Counted from the stretch's first letter, positions 8,519 through 48,534 are shown. The stretch: 64,000 bases of DNA from Flavobacterium sp. (GCA_040396655.1 JBEBOB010000006.1:12899-76898); one strand, 5' to 3'. The notes: a model not told the origin generated them from the letters alone. Program-made: numbers and translations.

Positions 8519-9472
8519 TTATTCTGAAAACTCTCCCATGTTTTCGTATTTTTCCATACGCTCATCGATGAGTTTGTCGATATTCTTTTTGGACAATTCA
8601 GCATACGTTTTGACGATGGTGTTTTTTACTGTTTCAAAAGTAGCTTCACGATCGTAATGTGCACCTCCCAATGGTTCAGGAATCACTTCATCTATGAGCT
8701 TGTTCGATTTCATGTCTACCGAAGTAAGCTTGAGTGCATCGGCAGCCATTTCCTTGTATTCCCAACTGCGGAAAAGGATAGATGAACATGACTCAGGTGA
8801 TATTACGGAATACCAGGTATTTTCCAACATGAAAACCTTGTCTCCCACACCAATTCCGAGAGCTCCACCCGAAGCACCTTCACCAATGATGATTACGATG
8901 ATCGGAACCTTAATGCGGAACATTTCGAAAATATTGCGTGCAATGGCCTCTCCCTGCCCGCGTTCTTCAGCTTCCAGTCCCGGATAGGCGCCCGGAGTGT
9001 CGACGAAAGTTACGATGGGCACATTGAATTTTTCAGCCATACGCATAAGGCGCAATGCCTTGCGGTATCCTTCCGGATTGGCCATACCGAAATTACGGTA
9101 CTGGCGTGTTTTGGTATTGGTTCCTTTTTGTTGTCCGATGAACATAAAAGACTGGTCGCCAATTTTTCCCAATCCCCCGATCATGGCCTTGTCATCCTTT
9201 ACACCACGGTCTCCGAAAAGTTCCAGAAAGCTGTCTCCGCAAAGGGCCTTGATATAGTCCAGCGTATACGGGCGGTTTGGATGTCTCGACAGCTGAACGC
9301 GTTGCCACGCCGTTAAATTGCCGTATATCTCCTTTTTGGTTTCTTCCAGTTTCTTTTCTATATTTTTACAAGTGTCGGTAACATCCACCTCAGATTCCTG
9401 TCCGATAATCTGGCATTTATCCAATTGTTCGTTTAACTCTTTTATAGGTAATTCAAAATCTAAATACTCCAT
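8519..9472 (-). CDS. accA: Acetyl-CoA carboxylase carboxyltransferase alpha subunit
   Basis: [46 protein letters not shown]. Confidence 0.97.
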
Positions 9473-9524
9473 AAACCTCGTTGTTTGTCTTTTTTTGTGG
9501 CTACAAATATACTATTTTTATTAA

Positions 9525-10409
9525 TTAGGCAGTTGCTTTACTCCGATTTTTAAAATAGGCATTTAATAATACGGTAAGCAATATGATAACCGCTCCCAAA
9601 TAAAAAGCCGTCGTCATTTTTTCCTGGTCCTTAAACAGAATGACTGCCAGAAGGATACCGTAAATAGGCTCCAGATTAATGGTAAGCATAACGGTATAGG
9701 GCGTCAGGTATTTCATGATGTTAATGGTGGAGATGAACGGGTAAGCCGTACAGATCGATCCCAGAATGCCGATCCACAGGATGTCCAGTTCCTTAAAATG
9801 GAAATTCTCAGCGGTGAACCCGTCCTGGTACCACAGGAAGCAGGCCAGGATAAACAGCCCTCCGAGCAGTTCGTAAAAGCTTATGACAACGCTGTCGTGC
9901 GTATTCGCAAGTTTTCCGTTAATAATCGAAAACGATGCCGACAGGAAAGCCGATAACAGCGCTACTATAATACCCATTTTGTACTGTGATTCAAACCTAA
10001 AGATCAAAAGAAGGCCTGCTACAACGAGACATCCTAAAAGAATCTCATAAAGGATGAACTTACGTTTGTAGAATATGGGTTCGAGTATCGAAGTAAAAAA
10101 GGCCCCGGTCGAAATACAGGCCAGTGTAATGGATATGTTTGAAATTTTAATGGCATGAAAAAAGGTAAGCCAGTGAATGGCTATAACAAATCCGAAGATA
10201 AAGAAACGCAGCATATCCCTTGGACTAATCGCCAGGTTCTTTTTCTTGATGAGCAGGTACAGTAAAATGACGCATACTGCAATGGCAATTCTTGTAAAAA
10301 CAAGCGGTAGCGCCTGAAGGGAGATCAATTCCCCCAATATGGCTGTAAATCCCCATATAAATACAATGATATGGAGATGCAGCTGGTTTTTTAAATTAAC
10401 GTTTGGCAT
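9525..10409 (-). CDS. DMT/EamA family transporter
   Basis: About 10 hydrophobic segments; IWGFTAILG, INLEPIYGI. Confidence 0.85.
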   Translation of the reverse strand: MPNVNLKNQLHLHIIVFIWGFTAILGELISLQALPLVFTRIAIAVCVILLYLLIKKKNLAISPRDMLRFFIFGFVIAIHWLTFFHAIKISNISITLACISTGAFFTSILEPIFYKRKFILYEILLGCLVVAGLLLIFRFESQYKMGIIVALLSAFLSASFSIINGKLANTHDSVVISFYELLGGLFILACFLWYQDGFTAENFHFKELDILWIGILGSICTAYPFISTINIMKYLTPYTVMLTINLEPIYGILLAVILFKDQEKMTTAFYLGAVIILLTVLLNAYFKNRSKATA

Positions 10410-36833: not shown

Positions 36834-39800
36834 TTATTTGTTGTTGAAATAATGATATTGAATGACCGACTGGTTATATTGGTTCAGTACGTCGAGGTAG
36901 TTCTGACGTATACTTATGGCCTGGCTCAGGAACTGGCTAAGCTCAGCAAAACTGATTTCGCCGGCCTTATATGCAAGGCTCGATGCTTTGATGATGGCAT
37001 CAGCATGTTGCAACCCGCTGTCTTCATAAAAACGGAGCAGTTCTTCATTTTTATCGATCTCGGTAAGGGCATTCTGCTTTTGGGTTTGCATATACTGTTG
37101 TTCATAAAGCAATTTTTCCTGCTCCACGTCCTTTTCAGCTATGGCTGTTTTTACCTTGTTTCTGTAAGCACCTGTTCCGAAAAGCGGGAACGAGGCGGAG
37201 ACCGAAAAGCCGGACATAGGGTTTTCAGCTCCCCAAAGGCGCTGGCTGAAGAAACGGCCAGAGAATTCTGGTTTGTTGGTGTTTTTAACAACAGAAATAT
37301 TCGAAGCCGCGACATGAACAGATTGCTGCTGCTTTAGTACCAGCGGATGCTGTGCAATTTCTCCTTCCGGTTCCTGCTCTATTTTTATGAGGGGCATATC
37401 AACCGGAACGATAAGGTCTTCAACGTTTAACAGCAGCATAAGCTGTTTTTGTTCCATACTGAAATCCTGGGTATTCTGGTTTATACGCGTTCGCAGCTCT
37501 TTCATTTTAACCTCTGCAGAAATCTGGTCAAGTTTGGCAACATCACCTGCTTTCACACGTGTTTCTGCAGCCTGATAAAGCGAAGTATAGATGCTGTCGA
37601 GCCTTTGAAGGAGCTTGTGTTGCTCCTGCAGGTACCACAACTGGAAATAGGTCGAACGAACTTCCTTCACGATATTGAGGTTGAGCACTTCCCTGTTCAG
37701 CTGTGTGGATTTTAACTGTTCCTGGAAATAATTCTTCCGCGCGGCATAAAGTCCCGGCCATTCGATGTTCTGCATGATTCCTATTTTTAAAACACCGGTA
37801 TGGTCAGTGGGACGAAGGTCTTCGTTCTCAACAAAAAAGCCTGTTTTCGGAAGCTCACTGGCTGTTTGTACATTGAAAGACGAAGATCGCAGTTCAGCGT
37901 CGTTGATGCTGTACTGGCGATTTCCGGTAAGAGCCGTTTCCACTGCCTGATTCAGGGTAACGGGCTGCTGGGCCTGCATGGTCATGCTTCCCAGAAGCAT
38001 ACCTGTGAATAAGAAGGTTTTCATAGAAGTTTTAAGGTTTGGTCGAAATTTACTGTTGACGATAAGGTACAGCAACGGCAGTACGAAAAGCGTAAGGAAC
38101 GTGGCACTTGCAAGTCCCCCTATCACGACCGTTGCCAGAGGTTTCTGTACTTCTGCCCCTGCTCCGGAACTGATGGCCATTGGCAGAAAGCCAAGTGAAG
38201 CAACAGTAGCTGTCATGAGTACGGGGCGAAGTCGCGTTTTAGTCCCCTCCATCACACGCTTAAGGATATTGTCTTCCCCTTCTTTTTCCAATTGGTTAAA
38301 CGTCCCTATAAGGACGATACCGTTTAAAACCGCAACACCAAATAAGGCAATGAAGCCTATGGCCGCACTTATGCTGAAAGGCATATCCCGAATAAGAAGG
38401 GCAAACACCCCTCCTATGGCGCTCATAGGAATCGCGGTGAAGATAAGTACAGCCTGTTTAAACGAATGGAAGGTAAAATACAGCAACATAAAGATGAGCA
38501 ATAAAGAAACAGGGACGGCGATCATTAAACTGGCACTGGCTTTCTGAAGATTTTCAAACTGCCCCCCGTAGGTGAAATAGTAACCAGACGGCAAAGGTAC
38601 TTTTGCATTGAGCTCGGCCTGTATGTCTTCTACGACACTTTGCACATCGCGTCCCGAAACATTGAATCCGATGACAATTCTGCGTTTCCCGGCTTCCCGG
38701 CTTATCTGTGCAGGTCCCAGCTTATAATCAACGGTAGCTACCTGTGTAAGCGGTATCTGCTGCCCTGTTTTTGTTGAAATTGTAAGGTTTCGTACGTCCT
38801 CAATACTGGTACGGTGGATGCTGTCAAGACGTACGACAAGATCAAAACGACGCTCGTTTTCAAAGACCACTCCGGCACTTTTACCTGCAAAAGCCGTACT
38901 GAGAATATTGTTTACATCCACAACAGACAACCCATAATTTGCCAGGCGCGTTCTGTTGTACGTTACATTGATCTGTGGAAGACCGCTGATGCGTTCCACC
39001 TGTGGTGCAGTAGCCCCGTTTACCGATTTGATCACCTGTTCGGCTTTGTCGGCGTAAAGTGCAAGGGTATCGAGGTTTTCGCCGAATATTTTAACGGCAA
39101 CGTCCTGTCTTATTCCGGTCATAAGTTCATTAAAACGCATTTGAATGGGTTGGTTTTTCTCAAAGAATACGCCGGGTACCACTTCTAGTTTTTCCATGAG
39201 TGCATTGGCAAGTTCTTCATAGCTCCTGCCCGATTTCCACTCGTCCTGAGGTTTTAATACGATGATAAGGTCGGTGGCCTCAGGAGGCATGGGGTCGGTA
39301 GGAACTTCGGGTGCCCCCGTTTTACCGACAACCATCTTAACTTCATCAAACTGCTTTATAATACGCGAAGCCAACATGGAAGTTTCTAAACTCTGGCTCA
39401 GGGAACTTCCCTGCGGAAGAATACAGTGAAAAGCAAAATCACCTTCTTTAAGCTGAGGAATGAATTCGCCCCCCATGTTATTGAAAAGGAAAGCACTTAA
39501 GGCAAAAACAGCAAGAGTACCGCCCACAAGCACATATTTTATCTTTATTGCTTTGCGCAAAAGAGGTTCGTAGATGCTGTGAAAGAAATCCATCATACGA
39601 TCACTGAAATTGCGTTTGTGTTCTGTCTTTTTAGAAAGGAACAGGGCACACATCATCGGGATATACGTAAGGGAAAGGATGAGCGCTCCTAAAATGGCAA
39701 AACCTACTGTTTTAGCCATAGGGGTAAACATTTTTCCTTCTACTCCTACAAGTGTAAGGATGGGAATGTATACAATGAGTATGATGATTTCTCCAAATGC

Positions 39801-41144
39801 CGCACTGGTACGTATTTTAGAAGCTGATTCATATACTTCCTGATCCATTTCGTGCTGGGTAAGCACTTTTTTCGATTTACGCTGGGTAATGTGGTGTAGG
39901 GTTGCTTCTACAATAATAACCGCACCATCCACTATGAGCCCGAAATCTATGGCGCCTAAGCTCATAAGGTTGGCGCTTACCCCGAATAAATCCATCATGC
40001 CCAAAGCAAAAAGAAGCGACAGCGGAATGGCTGAAGCCACGATAAGCCCTGCCCTGAAATTTCCCAGAAAAAGCACGAGTACGAAGATTACGATGAGCGC
40101 TCCTTCAATAAGGTTCTTTTCTACTGTTTGTATGGCCCGGTCAACCAAGTCGGTCCGATCCAGGTAAGGTTCAATAACGACGTCTTTCGGCAATGATTTT
40201 TGGATAACGGGAAGCTTTTCCTTGATGCGGTTGACCACCTCGTTGCTGTTTTCCCCTTTAAGCATCATAACCACACCTCCTACCGCATCAACCTCACCGT
40301 TATAGGTTAGGGCTCCGTAGCGGGTGGCATATCCGAAATGTACTTTGGCCACGTCCTTAATAAATACCGGTACAGCGCCCGAATTTTTAACGGCAATATT
40401 TTCTATATCTTCAAGTGAAGTAACCATGCCTATCCCCCTGATAAAGTAAGCGTTAGGTTTTTTGTCGATATAGGCTCCACCCGTATTCTGGTTGTTTTGT
40501 TCAAGAGCGTCAAACAGGTCGTTGATGCCGATGCCCATGGCACGCAGACGGTTGGGATCTACAGCTACTTCATATTGTTTAAGCTCTCCTCCGAAGCTGT
40601 TGACCTCTGCAATACCCGGCGTTCCGATCAGTTGCCGGGCTACGATCCAGTCCTGCATGGTACGCAGGTCTTTGGCGCTGTATTTATGCTCGCTTCCCTT
40701 TTTGGGATGTATGATGTACTGGTATACCTCACCGAGCCCGGTACTTACAGGTGCCATTTCTGGCCTCCCGGTATTCGCCGGAATGGCTTCTTCTGCTTCT
40801 TTGAGTTTTTCGCCAATAAGCTGGCGTGCAAAGTAAATATCCACATTTTCCTTGAATACGACCGTTATAACAGATAATCCGAAGCGCGAAATACTGCGTA
40901 CTTCTTCAATATCCGGAATGTTGGCAATACTCTGTTCAATGGGAAAAGTTACCAGCTGCTCTACTTCCTGACTTGCCAGGGTTGGACAAGTGGTGTAGAT
41001 CTGCACCTGGTTGTTGGTAATGTCCGGTACGGCATCTATGGGAAGTCGGGATGCGCTCCATATTCCCCAGATAATCCATACCAGCGTCATCAGCCCAATA
41101 ATAATCTTATTCTGGATGCTGAATTTAATGATACGGTCTAGCAC
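36834..41144 (-). CDS. CzcA/CusA heavy-metal RND transporter fused to a C-terminal TolC-like domain
   Basis: LPIDAVPDITNNQVQ, LGAIDFGLIVDGAVIIVE, TRLRPVLMTA, QKPLATVVIGG; about 380-aa OMF-like tail; GTG start. Confidence 0.93.
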   Translation of the reverse strand: MLDRIIKFSIQNKIIIGLMTLVWIIWGIWSASRLPIDAVPDITNNQVQIYTTCPTLASQEVEQLVTFPIEQSIANIPDIEEVRSISRFGLSVITVVFKENVDIYFARQLIGEKLKEAEEAIPANTGRPEMAPVSTGLGEVYQYIIHPKKGSEHKYSAKDLRTMQDWIVARQLIGTPGIAEVNSFGGELKQYEVAVDPNRLRAMGIGINDLFDALEQNNQNTGGAYIDKKPNAYFIRGIGMVTSLEDIENIAVKNSGAVPVFIKDVAKVHFGYATRYGALTYNGEVDAVGGVVMMLKGENSNEVVNRIKEKLPVIQKSLPKDVVIEPYLDRTDLVDRAIQTVEKNLIEGALIVIFVLVLFLGNFRAGLIVASAIPLSLLFALGMMDLFGVSANLMSLGAIDFGLIVDGAVIIVEATLHHITQRKSKKVLTQHEMDQEVYESASKIRTSAAFGEIIILIVYIPILTLVGVEGKMFTPMAKTVGFAILGALILSLTYIPMMCALFLSKKTEHKRNFSDRMMDFFHSIYEPLLRKAIKIKYVLVGGTLAVFALSAFLFNNMGGEFIPQLKEGDFAFHCILPQGSSLSQSLETSMLASRIIKQFDEVKMVVGKTGAPEVPTDPMPPEATDLIIVLKPQDEWKSGRSYEELANALMEKLEVVPGVFFEKNQPIQMRFNELMTGIRQDVAVKIFGENLDTLALYADKAEQVIKSVNGATAPQVERISGLPQINVTYNRTRLANYGLSVVDVNNILSTAFAGKSAGVVFENERRFDLVVRLDSIHRTSIEDVRNLTISTKTGQQIPLTQVATVDYKLGPAQISREAGKRRIVIGFNVSGRDVQSVVEDIQAELNAKVPLPSGYYFTYGGQFENLQKASASLMIAVPVSLLLIFMLLYFTFHSFKQAVLIFTAIPMSAIGGVFALLIRDMPFSISAAIGFIALFGVAVLNGIVLIGTFNQLEKEGEDNILKRVMEGTKTRLRPVLMTATVASLGFLPMAISSGAGAEVQKPLATVVIGGLASATFLTLFVLPLLYLIVNSKFRPNLKTSMKTFLFTGMLLGSMTMQAQQPVTLNQAVETALTGNRQYSINDAELRSSSFNVQTASELPKTGFFVENEDLRPTDHTGVLKIGIMQNIEWPGLYAARKNYFQEQLKSTQLNREVLNLNIVKEVRSTYFQLWYLQEQHKLLQRLDSIYTSLYQAAETRVKAGDVAKLDQISAEVKMKELRTRINQNTQDFSMEQKQLMLLLNVEDLIVPVDMPLIKIEQEPEGEIAQHPLVLKQQQSVHVAASNISVVKNTNKPEFSGRFFSQRLWGAENPMSGFSVSASFPLFGTGAYRNKVKTAIAEKDVEQEKLLYEQQYMQTQKQNALTEIDKNEELLRFYEDSGLQHADAIIKASSLAYKAGEISFAELSQFLSQAISIRQNYLDVLNQYNQSVIQYHYFNNK

Positions 41145-41673: not shown

Positions 41674-44490
41674 TCAGCTTCCGAATCTTTTAATCTGGAT
41701 TGTTTTCTGCCTTACCTGGATGATGAATGCCGGCAGGCGGGTCATTTTACCAGATTCAACACGCACTTCTGATACGGGATTTTCACAGAACGTATTTTCT
41801 GCCAAAGAGGTTTCAGCGAGCACAACCTGGTACGTTCCCGTTGGAAGGAATGCGGTAAAATGACCTTCATCGGTTGTCGCTACTTTCTGGATGACTTTCC
41901 CGTTTTGCAGAATATTCAGGACGAGGCCTCCGAGTTTAGGTTCAAAATCAAGCACGCGTTTCTCGTCATATTCATAAGTTACCGAACCGTTTACAGAACC
42001 ATTCTGGTGTAACGGGATGTCGATACTGGTGCGGTAATCGGATACGTTAAAAGCATTCACTGCAGGATACCATCCCTTTTGAACAAGTGTCTGTATGGTA
42101 TAATCTCCAAACGGCACCGATCGGTAAAACAGCTGGCCTTTATCGTCTGTTTTAAAAGATGTGTTGTTGAGTATCGTCATATAATCAGTTGCCAGTTCGT
42201 CTCCTTCATCCCATATGCTGTTTGCATTCTTGTCATAGAAAACGCGGGCACTTACCCGGCTTTTCTTTCCGGCAGATGGGGTTCTGCGGTCAAAATTGAA
42301 ACGGATTCCTGCTTCGATTGTCAGTAGATGGCTGGGGTAAGCATAAGCTAAAGTGCGGTCTGTATCGTATTTGTACCACGAAGTATTGAGGTAGCACTGC
42401 CACGTTTGGTTGGGTGAATAGCTGGTATTGAAGAAAAGTGATGGTGTACTTCCTATCATAGGGTCGTCCATATACGAAACTCCGGAGTTCAGCATCAGTT
42501 TTTCAGCAAAAAACTGTTTCTGGAATGATGCCGATGCCATAAGGCGGTAAAAGCTGTTATCGGGTGATGTCCTGTAATAAGAAAGGTATTCCGAAAGGTA
42601 ATAGCTGCCCTTCTGGTATGAAATGCTGGAATTGAATGCTTTATACGAATAATTTGCCTGTGCTTTTCCCTGGAATGCCATTTTTTTCTGCAATGGGTAC
42701 TTCGCAAGGCCGTTTTCAAATTCCAGATGAATAAAGTGCAGCTGGTTTGGACTTGCCCAGTTAAAATGCTCGGTAAGCCTGTGGGCGTAAAGTTTTGGCA
42801 AATAAGAAGCATCCAGGCCTACAATACCGTTATAATTTGAAGAAGCTTCGTTTTGAAACTGGTAGCCGATACCCATTCCCAATTCCTGGAAGGGTTTCCA
42901 GCGGTACATAAATTCCGCACGGGAACTGGCCGATTTTGACTGCATGAAGTAAACAGGTGATTTCGGTGCAAAGCGCGAATAAAAATAGGAAGCCGTTAAG
43001 GATCCGGTTTCTCCTATTTCCCTGTTGATGCTTTGTTGTAGCTGTGTAACGCCGCGGCGGTTTCCGGGAAAAAAGTAACTGCTTACGAAATAATTTCCAA
43101 AAAGCTTATAAGCACCCAAAACCCCGTTATACTGGGTTTCAAGGGCATAGGATGCTTTGTTTGACGAAAGTCCGTCATAACTGCTCAAAGCACCATGTAT
43201 TTTGGTATTCAGGCGCCATTTCGCTGTAAATTCCCTGGTCATTTCACCGCTGACCATCTGATGTTTCGCTGATTCAAACGGATCTTCCCTGAAAAGGTAG
43301 GTACCCGCAAAATTTTTCGAATAATTCGATCCGCCCAGTATACCGTGTGCATAAAAACCGTAACCGTTTTTAAGAAAGCCGTTCTGCTGTATAAGGTTAA
43401 ACTGCTGATCAATAAAACCTACCTCAACCGATTTGTCCTTCCTGCCGTCCCCAGTAAGGATCGACATTCCGCGCCCCAGCAGTGACATTTCGAACGGTTT
43501 GCTTAAGTTTCCTACGACAAGCTGGTTGTTGTTAAGGGTATACGAAAGTGAAGTATTGTTTAAAACATACTGGTTGTCGTTGCTGCTTTTATAGGCTATA
43601 CCACGCAGCGAAAGATACCCGGCAGGAAGGTCGATATCGGCGGCACCTTGCAGTTGTGCTATTCCGGTGTCCTCTCCTATCTGACGGTAGCTGGCGGTCA
43701 CGGTATTTTTTTGACGGAAGTTACTCCAAACCGTATTCTGCGAATGAACGAACTGTTGGGATGAAGCCACGTTCTGTACCACGATGTTGAGGTTTCCGAA
43801 CAATTCCTTTTCCGCACCGCGCAGGCCTGTAATCTGTATATTGAACTGTTGCAGCTGTAACAGCCTGCGGTTAGGCATAAAGGTAAAAACAAAGGTAGAA
43901 TCACGTTGTACCTGTATATTGCCTTTAAGTTCAAAAAAGTTTGTTTCCCCAACAAGTTCCGGGATTTTTACCACGAGCGTAACGTCCTGCGACCTGTTTC
44001 CAAGATTGCTTACCTGCGTTTTTATGCGAAGAGAATCATTGGGGTTACTCAGATAAATCATCGAAAGGTCGGTGTACATCTTAAGCTGGTTGTTTTCTTC
44101 AACCTGGCGTTCCATGTTTTGGCGCGACACCACTTCGTTCCGACCGTTAACGATGCTGAAAGAAAGAGTGTTCATACCTGCTTCCGCCTCTTTCTGTATC
44201 CATATTTTCACGGGGATGAATTGCTGCTCGCCGGGTTTTAGTTCCACATCTATTGAGGTTCCCGATATGCTCCGCATCCCCTGGGGAACGGATATGAGGA
44301 TTTTTCCGCTGAATACCTTAGATTCAGCATTTTTTACCGATAAGGTTACATCAAGCAAATCCGTTTTTCCGGCATTTATTTCGCTGTTTGCTTCCAATTG
44401 AATACCGCCTGTATCTTGTGCCATACAGCTATATGCAATGAAGACAAACCAAAAAATAAACAATATTTTCCGGAAACTGGAATTTCTCAT
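41674..44490 (-). CDS. Large outer-membrane protein, putative pilus usher
   Basis: Signal peptide ending CMA-Q; N-terminal Ig-like domains (VELKPGEQQFIPV, VSNLGNRSQDVTL); long amphipathic beta-strand region ending IEAGIRFNF; C-terminal SdrD-B/CarboxypepD-like domains (VFYDKNANSIWDEGDE, KTDDKGQL, TTDEGHF). Confidence 0.55.
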   Translation of the reverse strand: MRNSSFRKILFIFWFVFIAYSCMAQDTGGIQLEANSEINAGKTDLLDVTLSVKNAESKVFSGKILISVPQGMRSISGTSIDVELKPGEQQFIPVKIWIQKEAEAGMNTLSFSIVNGRNEVVSRQNMERQVEENNQLKMYTDLSMIYLSNPNDSLRIKTQVSNLGNRSQDVTLVVKIPELVGETNFFELKGNIQVQRDSTFVFTFMPNRRLLQLQQFNIQITGLRGAEKELFGNLNIVVQNVASSQQFVHSQNTVWSNFRQKNTVTASYRQIGEDTGIAQLQGAADIDLPAGYLSLRGIAYKSSNDNQYVLNNTSLSYTLNNNQLVVGNLSKPFEMSLLGRGMSILTGDGRKDKSVEVGFIDQQFNLIQQNGFLKNGYGFYAHGILGGSNYSKNFAGTYLFREDPFESAKHQMVSGEMTREFTAKWRLNTKIHGALSSYDGLSSNKASYALETQYNGVLGAYKLFGNYFVSSYFFPGNRRGVTQLQQSINREIGETGSLTASYFYSRFAPKSPVYFMQSKSASSRAEFMYRWKPFQELGMGIGYQFQNEASSNYNGIVGLDASYLPKLYAHRLTEHFNWASPNQLHFIHLEFENGLAKYPLQKKMAFQGKAQANYSYKAFNSSISYQKGSYYLSEYLSYYRTSPDNSFYRLMASASFQKQFFAEKLMLNSGVSYMDDPMIGSTPSLFFNTSYSPNQTWQCYLNTSWYKYDTDRTLAYAYPSHLLTIEAGIRFNFDRRTPSAGKKSRVSARVFYDKNANSIWDEGDELATDYMTILNNTSFKTDDKGQLFYRSVPFGDYTIQTLVQKGWYPAVNAFNVSDYRTSIDIPLHQNGSVNGSVTYEYDEKRVLDFEPKLGGLVLNILQNGKVIQKVATTDEGHFTAFLPTGTYQVVLAETSLAENTFCENPVSEVRVESGKMTRLPAFIIQVRQKTIQIKRFGS

Positions 44491-44504: not shown

Positions 44505-45530
44505 TTATTGAGGTGTTATTTCATATTGCAAAACGGTGGAATATTCTTCCATTTTTGCCTGTAAAAGTGTGATATCGTTAGGTTGGGTTGCATATTTTAT
44601 GTCATAATATGCCATTTTCCCCTGTGTAGAAGTTCCGTTTGCAATCTTCTGCATTCCGGCACTCAATACAATGGGAAATACCGTAGCGGTGGCTCCTGTT
44701 GAAGGGACCAGCGACATATGTACCGTCTGCAACGGCAGGGTATTGCCGTTTTGCGATGTGAAGGTACCGTATATCGATTTTACCTTCAACTGGTAATCCG
44801 TACTGGATTGTGCAATAAGGCCGTTGGGAACGATGATCTGTGCGCCCTGAACATAGTCGGTCTGGTTTGTAAGGTTAAGCAGCGTGTTTTTCGCGTGGGC
44901 TGCCACCTTAAGCGAGATCTGGTTGGTCACCGGTGGGGTTCCCGACAAATTCCCTATCTGTAATGTGTAGCGTTGCTCGCTGGTGCCTAATACGGTATTG
45001 TTCTGGTCGTAAAAACGGAATTCAAGAACCATTGTAAAATTTGACCAGGTCGTAAACGAACCAAGGTACGCCCCTCCTTCTACTTTGAGGTTAAAAGGCA
45101 TAAGCAGGTTAAAGTACGCATTATTGCTTTTAGGGTTGTTATACAGGGCAGCTTGCGACTGCGGAACAAGGAATACTTCCTGTGAAGTATTCAGTATTAC
45201 CTGTCCCGGCATCCCTATCTGTACAACAGTAGGCGGGCCGTTCGGATTAAACTCCCCGGAAGTCGCCGTAGGAAGCAGGCTTATTTTGTCTGCAGGAAAA
45301 ATCTGGCTGCCATTGCTTATGGGTTGCTTTAAACGAACCGAAATACGCCATGTAGGCATCTGGATAAACCCGTTCCCGTCAATCTTTAAAGTATAGGCGT
45401 CGTTTGATAAATTGCCGCTGTAGGAATCAATCTGCAGGTAATTGTTGCTCCAGGCAGAAAAACGGGCTTGCTGGGCATGAGAAAGTACCGAAAAGCAGAT
45501 GCAGAAAATAAGATATAAATGCTTATTCAT
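44505..45530 (-). CDS. Two-domain secreted protein, putative tip adhesin
   Basis: Signal peptide ending SHA-Q; C-terminal half homologous to the 180-aa protein (DYVQG, LIAQSSTDYQLKVKS, YSTVLQYEITPQ). Confidence 0.55.
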   Translation of the reverse strand: MNKHLYLIFCICFSVLSHAQQARFSAWSNNYLQIDSYSGNLSNDAYTLKIDGNGFIQMPTWRISVRLKQPISNGSQIFPADKISLLPTATSGEFNPNGPPTVVQIGMPGQVILNTSQEVFLVPQSQAALYNNPKSNNAYFNLLMPFNLKVEGGAYLGSFTTWSNFTMVLEFRFYDQNNTVLGTSEQRYTLQIGNLSGTPPVTNQISLKVAAHAKNTLLNLTNQTDYVQGAQIIVPNGLIAQSSTDYQLKVKSIYGTFTSQNGNTLPLQTVHMSLVPSTGATATVFPIVLSAGMQKIANGTSTQGKMAYYDIKYATQPNDITLLQAKMEEYSTVLQYEITPQ

Positions 45531-46320
45531 AAGTAAATTTTAATTCAGCCATTTCAAGTGAACGCTCATCTCCGTAATCTATCAGTATCGTACCAATATA
45601 TTTCACTCCCTTTTCGAGTGTCTTTGGAAGTGCAAATACCATAGACCTGCTGTTGCCCGGTAAACTGTAAAATACCGTTGTGCTTGTATGCTCTTTTTTT
45701 CCTGTCTGGGGATTCAGTACATCGAGAAATATTTTTCCGTCGGTCCACACGTTCCCAAGGTTTTCAAATAACAGCCCGATATCGTGCGTATCTTTATTAA
45801 AGACCGCATCCTTAATTTCGATTTTTCGTTTTTTAATCCCGGGATTTTTATGAAAAAGCTTGATACCCGAACGTACGCTTACCTTGATATTAGAGCCTTT
45901 GGCATCCATGTCATCAATAGGGTTCATCTGGGTTACATACAGCATGGCCGTATGTACGCTCAATGTATCGCCGGGAATATTAGGAGCGGTAAGCGTGACT
46001 TCCAATTCCTTTTTTTCACCGGGTTTTAACGAAAAATAACTGTCTTCCTTTTTAATGGTCACCCATGAAGCACACGAAACCGGAAGGGTTTGCGCCTCGT
46101 GCATAATGTTTTCACCATAACGGTCGTATTCCCAGTCTCCAAGGCTCACGGCAAGATCCAGTGAATTGGAAGCACTTACGTTTGTAACCATGACCTTCTG
46201 AGTGGTACTCTGGCCGCTGCCGTTTTCAAAATAAAGCCTTGGGGGCGATACAGATACACCGGTTTGTGCCCAGCCGGCAAGTTGGAAAAGGACAAAACAA
46301 AGGAAACAGATGTTTTTCAT
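45523..46320 (-). CDS. PapD/DUF916-like periplasmic chaperone
   Basis: Signal peptide ending GWA-Q; GVSVSPPRLYF, SWVTI, FSLKPGEKKELEVTL, AMLYVTQ, IKVSVRSGIKL; two Ig-like halves. Confidence 0.65.
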   Translation of the reverse strand: MKNICFLCFVLFQLAGWAQTGVSVSPPRLYFENGSGQSTTQKVMVTNVSASNSLDLAVSLGDWEYDRYGENIMHEAQTLPVSCASWVTIKKEDSYFSLKPGEKKELEVTLTAPNIPGDTLSVHTAMLYVTQMNPIDDMDAKGSNIKVSVRSGIKLFHKNPGIKKRKIEIKDAVFNKDTHDIGLLFENLGNVWTDGKIFLDVLNPQTGKKEHTSTTVFYSLPGNSRSMVFALPKTLEKGVKYIGTILIDYGDERSLEMAELKFTYE

Positions 46321-46342
46321 TTCAGACAGTTTTAAAAAGTAT

Positions 46343-46374
46343 AAAAAAAGTGTTACGGTATTACGGTAACACTT
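46343..46374 (-). terminator. Intrinsic terminator between the major pilin and chaperone genes
   Basis: Minus strand AAGTGTTAC-cgtaatacc-GTAACACTT followed by a T run. Confidence 0.7.
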
Positions 46375-46396
46375 ATAAATTTAAACATAATTTTAA

Positions 46397-46939
46397 TTAC
46401 TGTGCTACGATCGTATAAGTAACCTGAGTTGTATAAACAGTAGGATTTTGACCTGCTACGTAGTTGTTAAGGTAAGTGTCAGCACCTGCTCCTTTATAAG
46501 AAACAGATATTTTTTTATCAACACCCCCTGTAGTTGCAGAAACGATAAGCTTATCATCACCAGTTAATAGCTGCGGAGTATATACACCGTTTATTACGGG
46601 CTCAGTACCTGCTTCGGCGATAATGTTGATTGAATTTGAAGCGATAGTTCCGTTAGAACCGGCGGCTGCATTTTGCAGGTTGGCAGAAGCGCTTTTTACC
46701 TTTACCTGGAAACCTCCTGTGCTGTAAACCGTTAGGTGGTCAGGATTTGGAACTGTTACACCTTGAGCATAATCGCTTTTGCTTACGTAATCGATATTAA
46801 CGATTTTTTGTGCAGGGTTTACTACAAGGGTTTGGATCGGGTTTAAGCGAACATTCAATGTTACGTTCTCAGAGTTAGTTTGTGCGAACGACGATAATCC
46901 CATTAACAATGCAAATGCTGCCAAAATTTGTTTTTTCAT
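46397..46939 (-). CDS. Putative major pilin subunit
   Basis: Signal peptide ending SFA-Q; N-terminal alternating NVTLNVRLNPIQTL; C-terminal YTTQVTYTIVAQ; no Cys; Gly/Ala/Asn/Thr-rich beta protein. Confidence 0.6.
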   Translation of the reverse strand: MKKQILAAFALLMGLSSFAQTNSENVTLNVRLNPIQTLVVNPAQKIVNIDYVSKSDYAQGVTVPNPDHLTVYSTGGFQVKVKSASANLQNAAAGSNGTIASNSINIIAEAGTEPVINGVYTPQLLTGDDKLIVSATTGGVDKKISVSYKGAGADTYLNNYVAGQNPTVYTTQVTYTIVAQ

Positions 46940-46985
46940 CTTTTCTTAATTTTTTCTTATTGTTTGTTGTGTAAGTTTGCCGGAG

Positions 46986-46993
46986 CAAAGGTA
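46986..46993 (-). promoter_or_regulatory. Bacteroidota -7 promoter of the major pilin gene
   Basis: TACCTTTG on the minus strand, 46 nt upstream of the ATG. Confidence 0.65.
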
Positions 46994-47210
46994 TGTTGTT
47001 GTTGCCGTTTCGACCTTGTAAAAAAAGGAATAAAAACTGTTATTTTTTGAAATTCAGCTGTTTATCGTTTTTTTTACTTTTCGAAATCGGATGCAAAATT
47101 AGGGTGTGTTTTTTGAACCCTTCTTGTGAAAAAATGTAATTATTTGGTAGAATTATGCATTTGAACCGTTTTAACAATTTATAAAGAATTGTAGTGGTGA
47201 CACGCATTTG

Positions 47211-47618
47211 CTAATGAGAAACTATGGTATAAACATAGTGGGGTACTTCTTTGTCGTTAAATGATGTAGAAGGTGTTTTTTGGTAATTTTCAGCAGAAAC
47301 AGTATGAATGCTCTGCTGCGTCCCGCTGTTGGTGGAAACGATTTTCTGAATGTCTGCTTCAGATGTACCTGAAGTTTCTGAAGTATTCCGGTGTTTTTTT
47401 TCACTTTCGGTTCTTTCTCTGTGAAGGCGAACCGTATACCCGTAGGTACTGGTTATCTGTAAATTGTTTATGCGGGGAATTTCTTTTTCAGTGCTGTTCT
47501 GTACAGACAGAAGCTGTACGGGTTCCAGTCTTACGTTTAGTTGAACAGATGCCGTATTTTGTGCCTTTAAACCGGACAAACCTCCTATTAAGAAAAATAA
47601 ACAAAAACGGACAAGCAT
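47211..47618 (-). CDS. Putative minor pilin (paralog of the 180-aa protein)
   Basis: Signal peptide ending LKA-Q; SVQLNVRLEPVQLL, LQITSTYGYTVRL, HYVYTIVSH. Confidence 0.55.
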   Translation of the reverse strand: MLVRFCLFFLIGGLSGLKAQNTASVQLNVRLEPVQLLSVQNSTEKEIPRINNLQITSTYGYTVRLHRERTESEKKHRNTSETSGTSEADIQKIVSTNSGTQQSIHTVSAENYQKTPSTSFNDKEVPHYVYTIVSH

Positions 47619-47679: not shown

Positions 47680-48534
47680 TTAATTATGCAGCATTTTCAA
47701 TTCTTTCGGATTTTTTCCTGAATGTTTTTTTATGAGTTTGCTGAAGTTTGCTTCATCGTTGAATCCCAGGTGATAAGATACTTCGGCTATGGTAACATCG
47801 CTGTTTTGCAGCAGCCGTTTGGTTTCGTGTACAATTTTATCCAGGATTACCTGTTTGGCCGTTTTTCCAAGGGTTACTTCGCAAATCTCGGTAAGCTTGC
47901 GCGGAGTTAAATGCAGCAGGCGTGCATAGAACTGTACCGTTTTTTCACTGATGAAGTTCTTGTGAAGCTGTAGTTTAAACTTATTGACCGTCTTAAGATA
48001 GGAAAAATCCTTAAGTTTGATGAAAGGGTCGTCTTCCAGAGCCAGCAAACCATCAAGAACCAGTGATTCAATGCAGTTATGGGCAAATGGGATATACAGG
48101 TTCGGACTGCGTTTTTCATAAACCTTAAGTCGTTTTATCACATGTTTCTTGAAATCGGCCAGACTGATTTGCGTATCGATGATGTGAAGGTCCTTGGAAC
48201 AGTCGAAGAATAAAGTGGAATTAAGCAGGTAGGAATCCTTTGCCGATTTTTCGTAAAAGAAAGAGGAAAACGTAATCACATAAACATATTCAGAATCGGG
48301 ATTAATGAACTTAATAAAGGTTTCCTGACCAATAAAAACCAGTTTCTGAGCCGGAATCGTGTAAAGGTTACCCTCTACTTCCAGCTGGGTTTCCCTGAAT
48401 ATTTTAAGTATGACGAAATATTCCATGGTAGAACTGTAAAAGCGCCCCTCATTCTTTCTGGTCAGATCCTTAAGGGAATTGATACTGAAGCCGTCCTGAA
48501 TAAATTCTTCTGTAAGTTTTGCATTTTGTTTCAT
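47680..48534 (-). CDS. AraC-family transcriptional regulator
   Basis: KTVQFYARLLHLTPRKLTEIC, IAEVSYHLGFNDEANFSKLIKKHSGKNP. Confidence 0.92.
   Translation of the reverse strand: MKQNAKLTEEFIQDGFSINSLKDLTRKNEGRFYSSTMEYFVILKIFRETQLEVEGNLYTIPAQKLVFIGQETFIKFINPDSEYVYVITFSSFFYEKSAKDSYLLNSTLFFDCSKDLHIIDTQISLADFKKHVIKRLKVYEKRSPNLYIPFAHNCIESLVLDGLLALEDDPFIKLKDFSYLKTVNKFKLQLHKNFISEKTVQFYARLLHLTPRKLTEICEVTLGKTAKQVILDKIVHETKRLLQNSDVTIAEVSYHLGFNDEANFSKLIKKHSGKNPKELKMLHN

Follow-up and report, generated by a model that had tools for sequence, protein, structure and literature searches.

The six co-oriented minus-strand genes that we describe here lie in a 64,000-nucleotide stretch of DNA from Flavobacterium sp. 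(GCA_040396655.1, JBEBOB010000006.1:12899-76898; hereafter the window, in whose coordinates all positions are given) and encode an AraC-family regulator and the proteins p135, p180, p265, p341, and p938. This operon represents a previously undescribed and highly diverged form of the chaperone-usher systems, found in Bacteroidota. Its products p135, p180, and p341 are probably subunits of one surface fibre that is joined by donor-strand exchange and assembled by a very divergent chaperone/usher-type pathway of Flavobacteriia. The structural and assembly parts are nearly invisible to curated models; the chaperone, the pore, and the subunits all point to one mechanism. Translation of the five non-regulatory genes gives in each case a signal peptide that ends at an Ala-Gln cleavage site and has no lipobox cysteine.

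Three proteins share a pilin-like domain

A preliminary description of this DNA had claimed three paralogous pilin-like domains and had suggested profile-profile alignment as a check. All the peptides it quoted are found in the minus-strand open reading frames (ORFs) at 47211-47618 (p135), 46397-46939 (p180), and 44505-45530 (p341). BLASTP pairs p180 with p135 (expectation value, E, 2e-8) and, over the DYxQG...KVKS block, with p341 (E 2e-4), and gives no match between p135 and p341. We retrieved 80 related loci from Chryseobacterium, Flavobacterium, Myroides, Niabella, and Taibaiella genomes and extracted the orthologues. Comparison of the resulting alignments with hhalign relates p180 to p135 over the full length (99%, E 5.7e-18) and residues 38-180 of p180 to residues 207-341 of p341 (97.5%, E 8e-12). 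With a broader family profile (A6, built from 40 distant p180-family members), residues 206-341 of p341 align with residues 18-161 of mature p180 (99.0%, E 3.6e-18). The homology of the three domains is thus borne out, with p135 and p341 linked solely via p180: their direct profile comparison is undetectable (9.5%).

The N-terminal strand motif had been placed in two of the proteins, and the profiles agree. In p180, the strand VTLNVRLNPIQ precedes a QTLVV strand, and the p341 pilin domain starts at the equivalent QTLVV/ISLKV; because the alignment to p341 begins exactly past the N-terminal strand, the motif is truly missing there. The pilin domain is likewise confined to the C-terminal half of p341, as first described, where it follows a conserved GTPP linker with an invariant P199. 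The N-terminal domain of p341 (residues 21-200) is unrelated: profiles link it to none of the pilin domain, p135, and p265 and to no Pfam or PDB entry. Its orthologues have a mean pairwise identity of 58%. An internal duplication within p341 was considered and rejected, as hhalign leaves the N-terminal domain unlinked to the pilin domain, p135, and p265. This layout is that of the two-domain tip subunit without a donor strand, a hallmark of chaperone-usher systems, and p341 is likely the tip subunit.

In all three proteins the last strand ends one or two residues before the C-terminus. The N-terminal and C-terminal strands are the best-conserved segments of the family (0.70 and 0.67 vs 0.50), which is what a strand-exchange interface predicts. 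p135 retains both strands and carries internal deletions relative to the p180 family. It is the fastest-evolving gene of the operon, with 22-37% identity to the few orthologues that BLASTP detects; the corresponding range for p180 across the related loci is 52-69%. At the p135 position, 51 loci hold a small paralogue (roughly 120-155 residues) with an LNVRLxPxQ motif. In Flavobacterium and Myroides loci L002, L020, L045, L061, L062, and L069 (about 8840-9710), a second full-size p180 paralogue (36-57% identity) replaces the p135-like gene, which suggests that p135-type genes arose from a duplicated major-subunit gene by trimming. p135 itself is likely a minor subunit.

Public data contain 543 clusters of the p180 family at 50% identity (E ≤ 1e-3). 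Scans of 66 family members against Pfam and NCBIfam gave no match above threshold. Neither PF05229 (SCPU) nor PF14352 (DUF4402) matches any of the 66 or anything in the genome at E ≤ 10, although UniRef labels some homologue clusters DUF4402. Some Chryseobacterium also carry extra p180-like genes outside the operon (L028 5623-6712 and 13933-14478; L023, L068, and L070), where no gene for a chaperone or a pore is close by; in L028 an ORF of 864 residues adjoins them.

p180 and the TLP-1 fibrils

The AlphaFold2 (AF2) model of mature p180 (mean predicted local distance difference test score, pLDDT, 90.2; predicted template modelling score, pTM, 0.82) is a seven-strand sandwich that begins at residue 17. 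Residues 1-16, which bear the motif, lie in no paired strand of the monomer as assigned by DSSP, and NVTLNVRLNPIQ is the candidate donor-strand peptide. A Foldseek search of the PDB with this model places TLP-1b and TLP-1a on top (E 1.6e-4, TMq 0.52-0.55), followed by an archaeal bundling pilus, the FimA rod, CfaB bound to CfaA, and the PapA rod. Further matches are FimA, the pilin domains of FimH and PapG, the Sulfolobus 0406 filament, TasA, and CsuA/B. Nearly all the top matches are subunits linked through a donated N-terminal strand, and CfaB, the comparator chosen in the preliminary description, stands at rank 5.

TLP-1a and TLP-1b (PDB 9IKJ and 9IKK) are fibrils from pond water that were solved by cryo-electron microscopy (CryoSeek, PNAS 2024, PMC11494351). 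The N-terminal β1 strand of each protomer completes the Ig-like fold of another protomer in the fibril, the donor being protomer n+4 of an 8-nm tubule (PMC11494351). Among predicted folds, the one that its authors found to match best belongs to a Flavobacteriales protein; the source organism, genes, and assembly machinery could not be identified in that study (PMC11494351).

Searches of PDB sequences with single sequences and first profiles of p180, p341, and p938 gave nothing usable. The same search with profile A6 ranks TLP-1b and TLP-1a highest, at E 0.22 and 0.47, which are not significant alone. The alignment sets NVTLNVRLNPIQTL against the start of TLP-1, NVTVTMDLQPVLQL, as well as DYAQG against EYIGG and HLTVYSTGG against DLSVSST. 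Since the sequence and fold searches independently choose the same two PDB chains, the kinship with TLP-1 is persuasive, neither search being decisive alone. Common to TLP-1 and the p180 family are the motifs NVT-x-x-x-x-L-x-P, (D/E)Y-x-x-G, and L-(S/T)-V-x-S-T, and p180 has both the fold and the N-terminal donor-strand motif of 9IKJ/9IKK that define the TLP-1 class. The two differ in length, with 236-237 residues in the TLP-1 protomer and 161 in mature p180.

A second, more distant type of cluster occurs in another Flavobacteriales family (genome G018; L110 5286-11283 and L111 5273-7378) and comprises three TLP-1-like subunits, a divergently transcribed chaperone with a 178-residue subunit, and an 898-residue pore protein. 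Subunits of this genome (162-182 residues) are 33-35% identical to the TLP-1 N-terminal fragment and match both that fragment (E 5e-9 to 3e-6) and the hidden Markov model (HMM) of the p180 family (about 1e-8); one of them also matches p180 itself and ends YTANVTYTISAQ. They adjoin homologues of p265 (29% identity, E 2e-30) and p938 (898 residues, E 1e-9). No homologue of the two-domain p341 was found in the cluster.

The PapD-like chaperone p265

By its sequence, p265 is a PapD-like two-domain periplasmic chaperone. An hhalign comparison of the p265 orthologues with 11 PapD-like chaperones of E. coli K-12 gives 89.6% (E 1.9e-6); with eight distant Bacteroidota relatives added to the p265 alignment, the match is 97.1% (E 4.7e-11) over 209 columns that cover both domains. 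In this alignment SPPRLYF pairs with GTRVIY, KVSVRSGIKLFHKNP with QLAFRTRIKLFYRP, and IDYGD with NDFGG. The Arg8/Lys112 pair of PapD anchors the C-terminal carboxylate of the subunit, and the residues of p265 that align with it, R28 and K154, do not vary among 23 orthologues. Curated HMMs yield weak PapD_N and fimbrial-chaperone matches at residues ~92-166 (PapD_N 13.5 bits vs a 23-bit cut-off), and a search of PDB sequences returns FaeE alone (E 0.12). The family is patchily distributed, being present in 9 of 401 sampled Bacteroidota genomes and in 3 of ~20 within the same genus.

The usher-like pore p938

In its AF2 model (pLDDT 83.3), p938 is usher-like in fold and domain order; it falls outside the usher sequence family and possibly lacks a plug. 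The modelled chain consists of N-terminal β-sandwiches at residues 30-130 and 136-240, a disordered linker (241-260), a region of strands (263-732), and two C-terminal β-sandwiches. Full-length FimD and PapC take the first 11 places among its Foldseek matches in the PDB (E 6.7e-15 to 1.3e-10, 758-855 aligned columns). Usher translocation domains come next, and the matches to TonB-dependent barrels are weaker, starting at E 6e-8. The two N-terminal sandwiches are COG1470/NEW3-like and stand in place of the usher N-domain; the NCBI name for the homologues is 'COG1470 family protein'. The Usher model PF00577 matches nothing in the genome at E ≤ 10, none of 89 p938 homologues carries this domain, and hhalign against nine E. 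coli ushers gives a probability below 1%. A C-terminal SpaA-domain match is marginal (23.8 vs 23.1 bits).

Assembly model and competing explanations

The preliminary description had read the three proteins as subunits joined by donor-strand complementation, which gains support from four independent lines: the PapD-like p265, the FimD/PapC-like fold of p938, the fold matches of p180, and the motif alignment with TLP-1. In the pathway that we propose, Sec would export all five products, each cleaved at its Ala-Gln site. The G1 strand of p265 (NIKVSVRSGIKLF) would cap the open β-sandwich of each subunit in the periplasm, and Arg28 and Lys154 would hold the C-terminal carboxylate of the subunit. 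At the p938 barrel, the N-terminal strand of the next subunit (V-T-L-N-V-R-L) would replace the strand of the chaperone. p341 would accept a strand and donate none; because its pilin domain has no strand to donate, only the distal position is possible for it, and its extra N-terminal domain would be displayed at that end. The polymerising major subunit would be p180, given its family, the largest, and the hairpin and T-run after its gene, and p135 would be a trimmed, fast-evolving minor subunit that has kept its strand. We infer the roles of major (p180), minor or adaptor (p135), and tip (p341) subunit, and with them the subunit order, an adhesin function with the p341 N-terminal domain as candidate receptor-binding domain, and the pairing of strands with grooves.

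Several observations weigh against this reading. The PapD_N, Usher, Fimbrial, SCPU, and DUF4402 models stay below threshold on every component, and the conserved Arg and Lys of p265 are variable in its most distant relatives. The Foldseek TM-scores are modest for both p180 (0.35-0.55) and p938 (0.27-0.38). Residues 1-16 of the p180 model have a pLDDT of 82-91, and AF2 may dock this segment on the body of the domain. In a classical usher, the 24-strand barrel is occluded by a plug domain that sits between strands 6 and 7, whereas the p938 model shows, by DSSP, ~26 long strands (263-732) and no plug-sized insertion of ~80 residues. A tubule with n+4 donors, as in TLP-1, is hard to thread as a single chain through one usher pore (PMC11494351). 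Finally, a search for expression data on the locus found no RNA runs.

In a rival reading, the same subunits would exchange strands in a TLP-1-like multi-start tubule (donor n+4) and not in a single-chain pilus with a tip; p341 would be an initiator, cap, or pore-gating subunit instead of an adhesin, and p938 a secretion pore or platform unlike FimD. We regard this as unlikely. TLP-1 is the best relative of p180 in both structure and sequence and has n+4 donors (PMC11494351), but p180, with its 161 mature residues, is a third shorter, so the lateral contacts of the tubule need not persist. The p341 N-terminal domain matches nothing lectin-like, its conservation slightly exceeds that of the pilin domain, and in G018 the chaperone gene is followed by one for a 178-residue protein with a single domain instead of two; a two-domain subunit without the strand is nevertheless the classical tip architecture. 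Similarly, the ~26 strands of p938 and its want of a recognisable plug suit a platform of another kind, yet it parallels ushers in its overall domain order and matches full-length ones best.

It is improbable that the proteins are non-polymerising secreted or periplasmic β-sandwich proteins, in which the motif would form an intramolecular edge strand and p265 would be a general partner of Ig folds. In favour of such a view, no family model recognises the subunits, the N-terminal segment of the p180 monomer model has a pLDDT of 82-91, and the polymer is predicted from sequence and models. Against it, DSSP finds residues 1-16 in no paired strand, the closest relatives with solved structures all form donor-strand polymers, and the homologous segment of TLP-1 is an inter-subunit strand (PMC11494351). 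The chaperone, moreover, retains the carboxylate-anchoring Arg and Lys, and the usher-like barrel is co-conserved with the subunits.

Type V pili (FimA/Mfa1) belong to the same phylum and also have subunits joined by strand exchange. Their subunits are lipoproteins that undergo proteolytic maturation and donate a C-terminal strand, with no known chaperone or usher; here the cleavage site has no Cys and no FimA/Mfa-type Pfam family matches. That the operon encodes a type V (FimA/Mfa-like) pilus or a set of type IX secretion system (T9SS) cargo proteins is hardly credible, even though the phylum is generally known for both, and we rejected the two on signal-peptide and domain evidence: the signal peptides are without a lipobox Cys, no P_gingi_FimA/Mfa-like or T9SS C-terminal-domain match occurs, the conserved strand is N-terminal, the proteins end at their last strand, and a PapD-like chaperone and an usher-like barrel are present.

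Comparison with known systems

The proposed donor-strand fibre would function as chaperone-usher pili do, although its subunit is closest to TLP-1. Several parts are common to it and the classical pili (FimA/FimC/FimD/FimH and PapA/PapD/PapC/PapG): pilin subunits, a periplasmic chaperone of two domains that provides a G1 strand and an Arg/Lys anchor, a barrel flanked by sandwich domains, and a two-domain subunit that has no donor strand. They differ in that here the two-domain subunit is encoded between the chaperone and the usher, the host belongs to Bacteroidota, no component reaches a Pfam or NCBIfam threshold, and p938 departs from ushers in its N-domain, its strand count, and its lack of a plug-sized insert.

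The class 5 CFA/I system (CfaB/CfaA/CfaC/CfaE) is alike in its alternating-hydrophobic N-terminal donor strand that ends before a Pro, in its four-gene operon logic, and in its two-domain tip. CfaB in the CfaA-CfaB complex matches the p180 model with E 7.5e-3; the TM-score is 0.36-0.38 and there is no sequence relationship to p180. Archaic (sigma) Csu pili, which likewise occur outside Proteobacteria, contribute CsuA/B to the fold matches of p180 (7ZL4_B, E 0.1). Their SCPU (PF05229) and DUF4402 (PF14352) families are not matched in the present genome, and Csu ushers match the Usher model PF00577, whereas p938 does not. The chaperone-free fibres (TasA, archaeal bundling pili, and Sulfolobus 0406; 7UEG, 8AUR, and 7PNB) are among the top fold matches and also use an N-terminal donor strand. 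They are built without a PapD-like chaperone or an outer-membrane barrel, in contrast to the present operon, in which both are co-conserved with the subunits.

To our knowledge, the known strand-exchange pili in Bacteroidota are type V pili. Full-text literature searches found no description of a chaperone-usher system in Flavobacteriia or Bacteroidota, and searches that covered DUF4402, chaperone-usher systems of Chryseobacterium, and donor strands in Flavobacterium returned nothing on the present system. We put at about even the chance that the operon represents a distinct, unrecognised Bacteroidota chaperone-usher lineage, made up of an AraC regulator, p180-type subunits, a PapD-like chaperone, a strand-less two-domain subunit, and a plugless COG1470-type barrel of ~26 strands, and that TLP-1-class fibrils have their genetic origin and their assembly machinery, both missing until now, in this lineage. 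The operon is in any case a candidate for that machinery. It extends the reach of donor-strand exchange machines, offers an usher-like pore whose architecture differs by its additional strands and the lack of an obvious plug, and gives a gene-level handle on the TLP-1 pond-water fibrils. Because related operons occur in cultivable Chryseobacterium and Flavobacterium strains, the link to TLP-1 is directly testable.

Operon organization and conservation

The order of regulator, small paralogue or second p180 copy, p180, p265, p341, and p938 is retained in ~66 of the 80 related loci (Table 1). Most of the 80 loci have an AraC orthologue immediately upstream of the cluster, and in 66 the AraC-type match is full-length. 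The genes of p341 and p265 share 8 bases. The cluster is single-copy, no paralogous cluster being found elsewhere in the 3.15-Mb genome. Pfam and NCBIfam scans of all six proteins recognise the AraC regulator and leave the other products below threshold, bar the marginal SpaA match of p938.

Table 1 Features of the operon in window coordinates.
Feature	Position	Strand	Basis
AraC-family regulator, head of operon	47680..48534	minus	Pfam HTH_18, E 1.6e-15
p135, 135 residues, small subunit paralogue	47211..47618	minus	ORF translation; hhalign to p180 family
p135 N-terminal strand motif SVQLNVRLEPVQLL, residues 24-37, right after the predicted Ala-Gln cleavage site	47508..47549	minus	Translation; aligned to p180 motif
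p180, 180 residues, candidate major subunit	46397..46939	minus	ORF translation; family profile; AF2 model
p180 N-terminal strand motif NVTLNVRLNPIQTL, residues 25-38, candidate donor strand	46826..46867	minus	Model, conservation, TLP-1 alignment
Hairpin (9 bp) and T7 run, attenuator-like, between p180 stop and p265 gene	46343..46374	minus	RNA fold
p265, PapD-like periplasmic chaperone	45523..46320	minus	hhalign to E. coli chaperones
p341, 341 residues, two-domain subunit	44505..45530	minus	ORF translation; hhalign
p341 N-terminal domain, residues 21-198, candidate tip or receptor-binding domain	44937..45470	minus	No profile match
p341 C-terminal pilin domain, residues 206-341, without N-terminal strand	44508..44915	minus	hhalign 99.0%, E 3.6e-18
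p938, usher-like outer-membrane protein	41674..44490	minus	AF2 model and Foldseek

The hairpin that follows the p180 stop codon has a folding energy of -14.8 kcal/mol (z -2.3) and was overlooked by a consensus terminator scan; with its T7 run, it would raise the p180 message over the downstream genes. The 272-nucleotide gap upstream of p180 contains TAATTTTG (47094-47101, minus strand), ~155 nucleotides before the start codon, which fits TAnnTTTG, the Bacteroidota -7 promoter element.

DNA near-identical to positions 44505-47618 occurs in metagenome contigs from insects, fertilizer, faeces, plants, and soil (word share 0.6-1.0). Adjoining the operon and unrelated to it, the window holds at 36834-41144 an ORF of 1436 residues, an apparent fusion of a resistance-nodulation-division (RND; CzcA-like) pump and a TolC-like outer-membrane factor.

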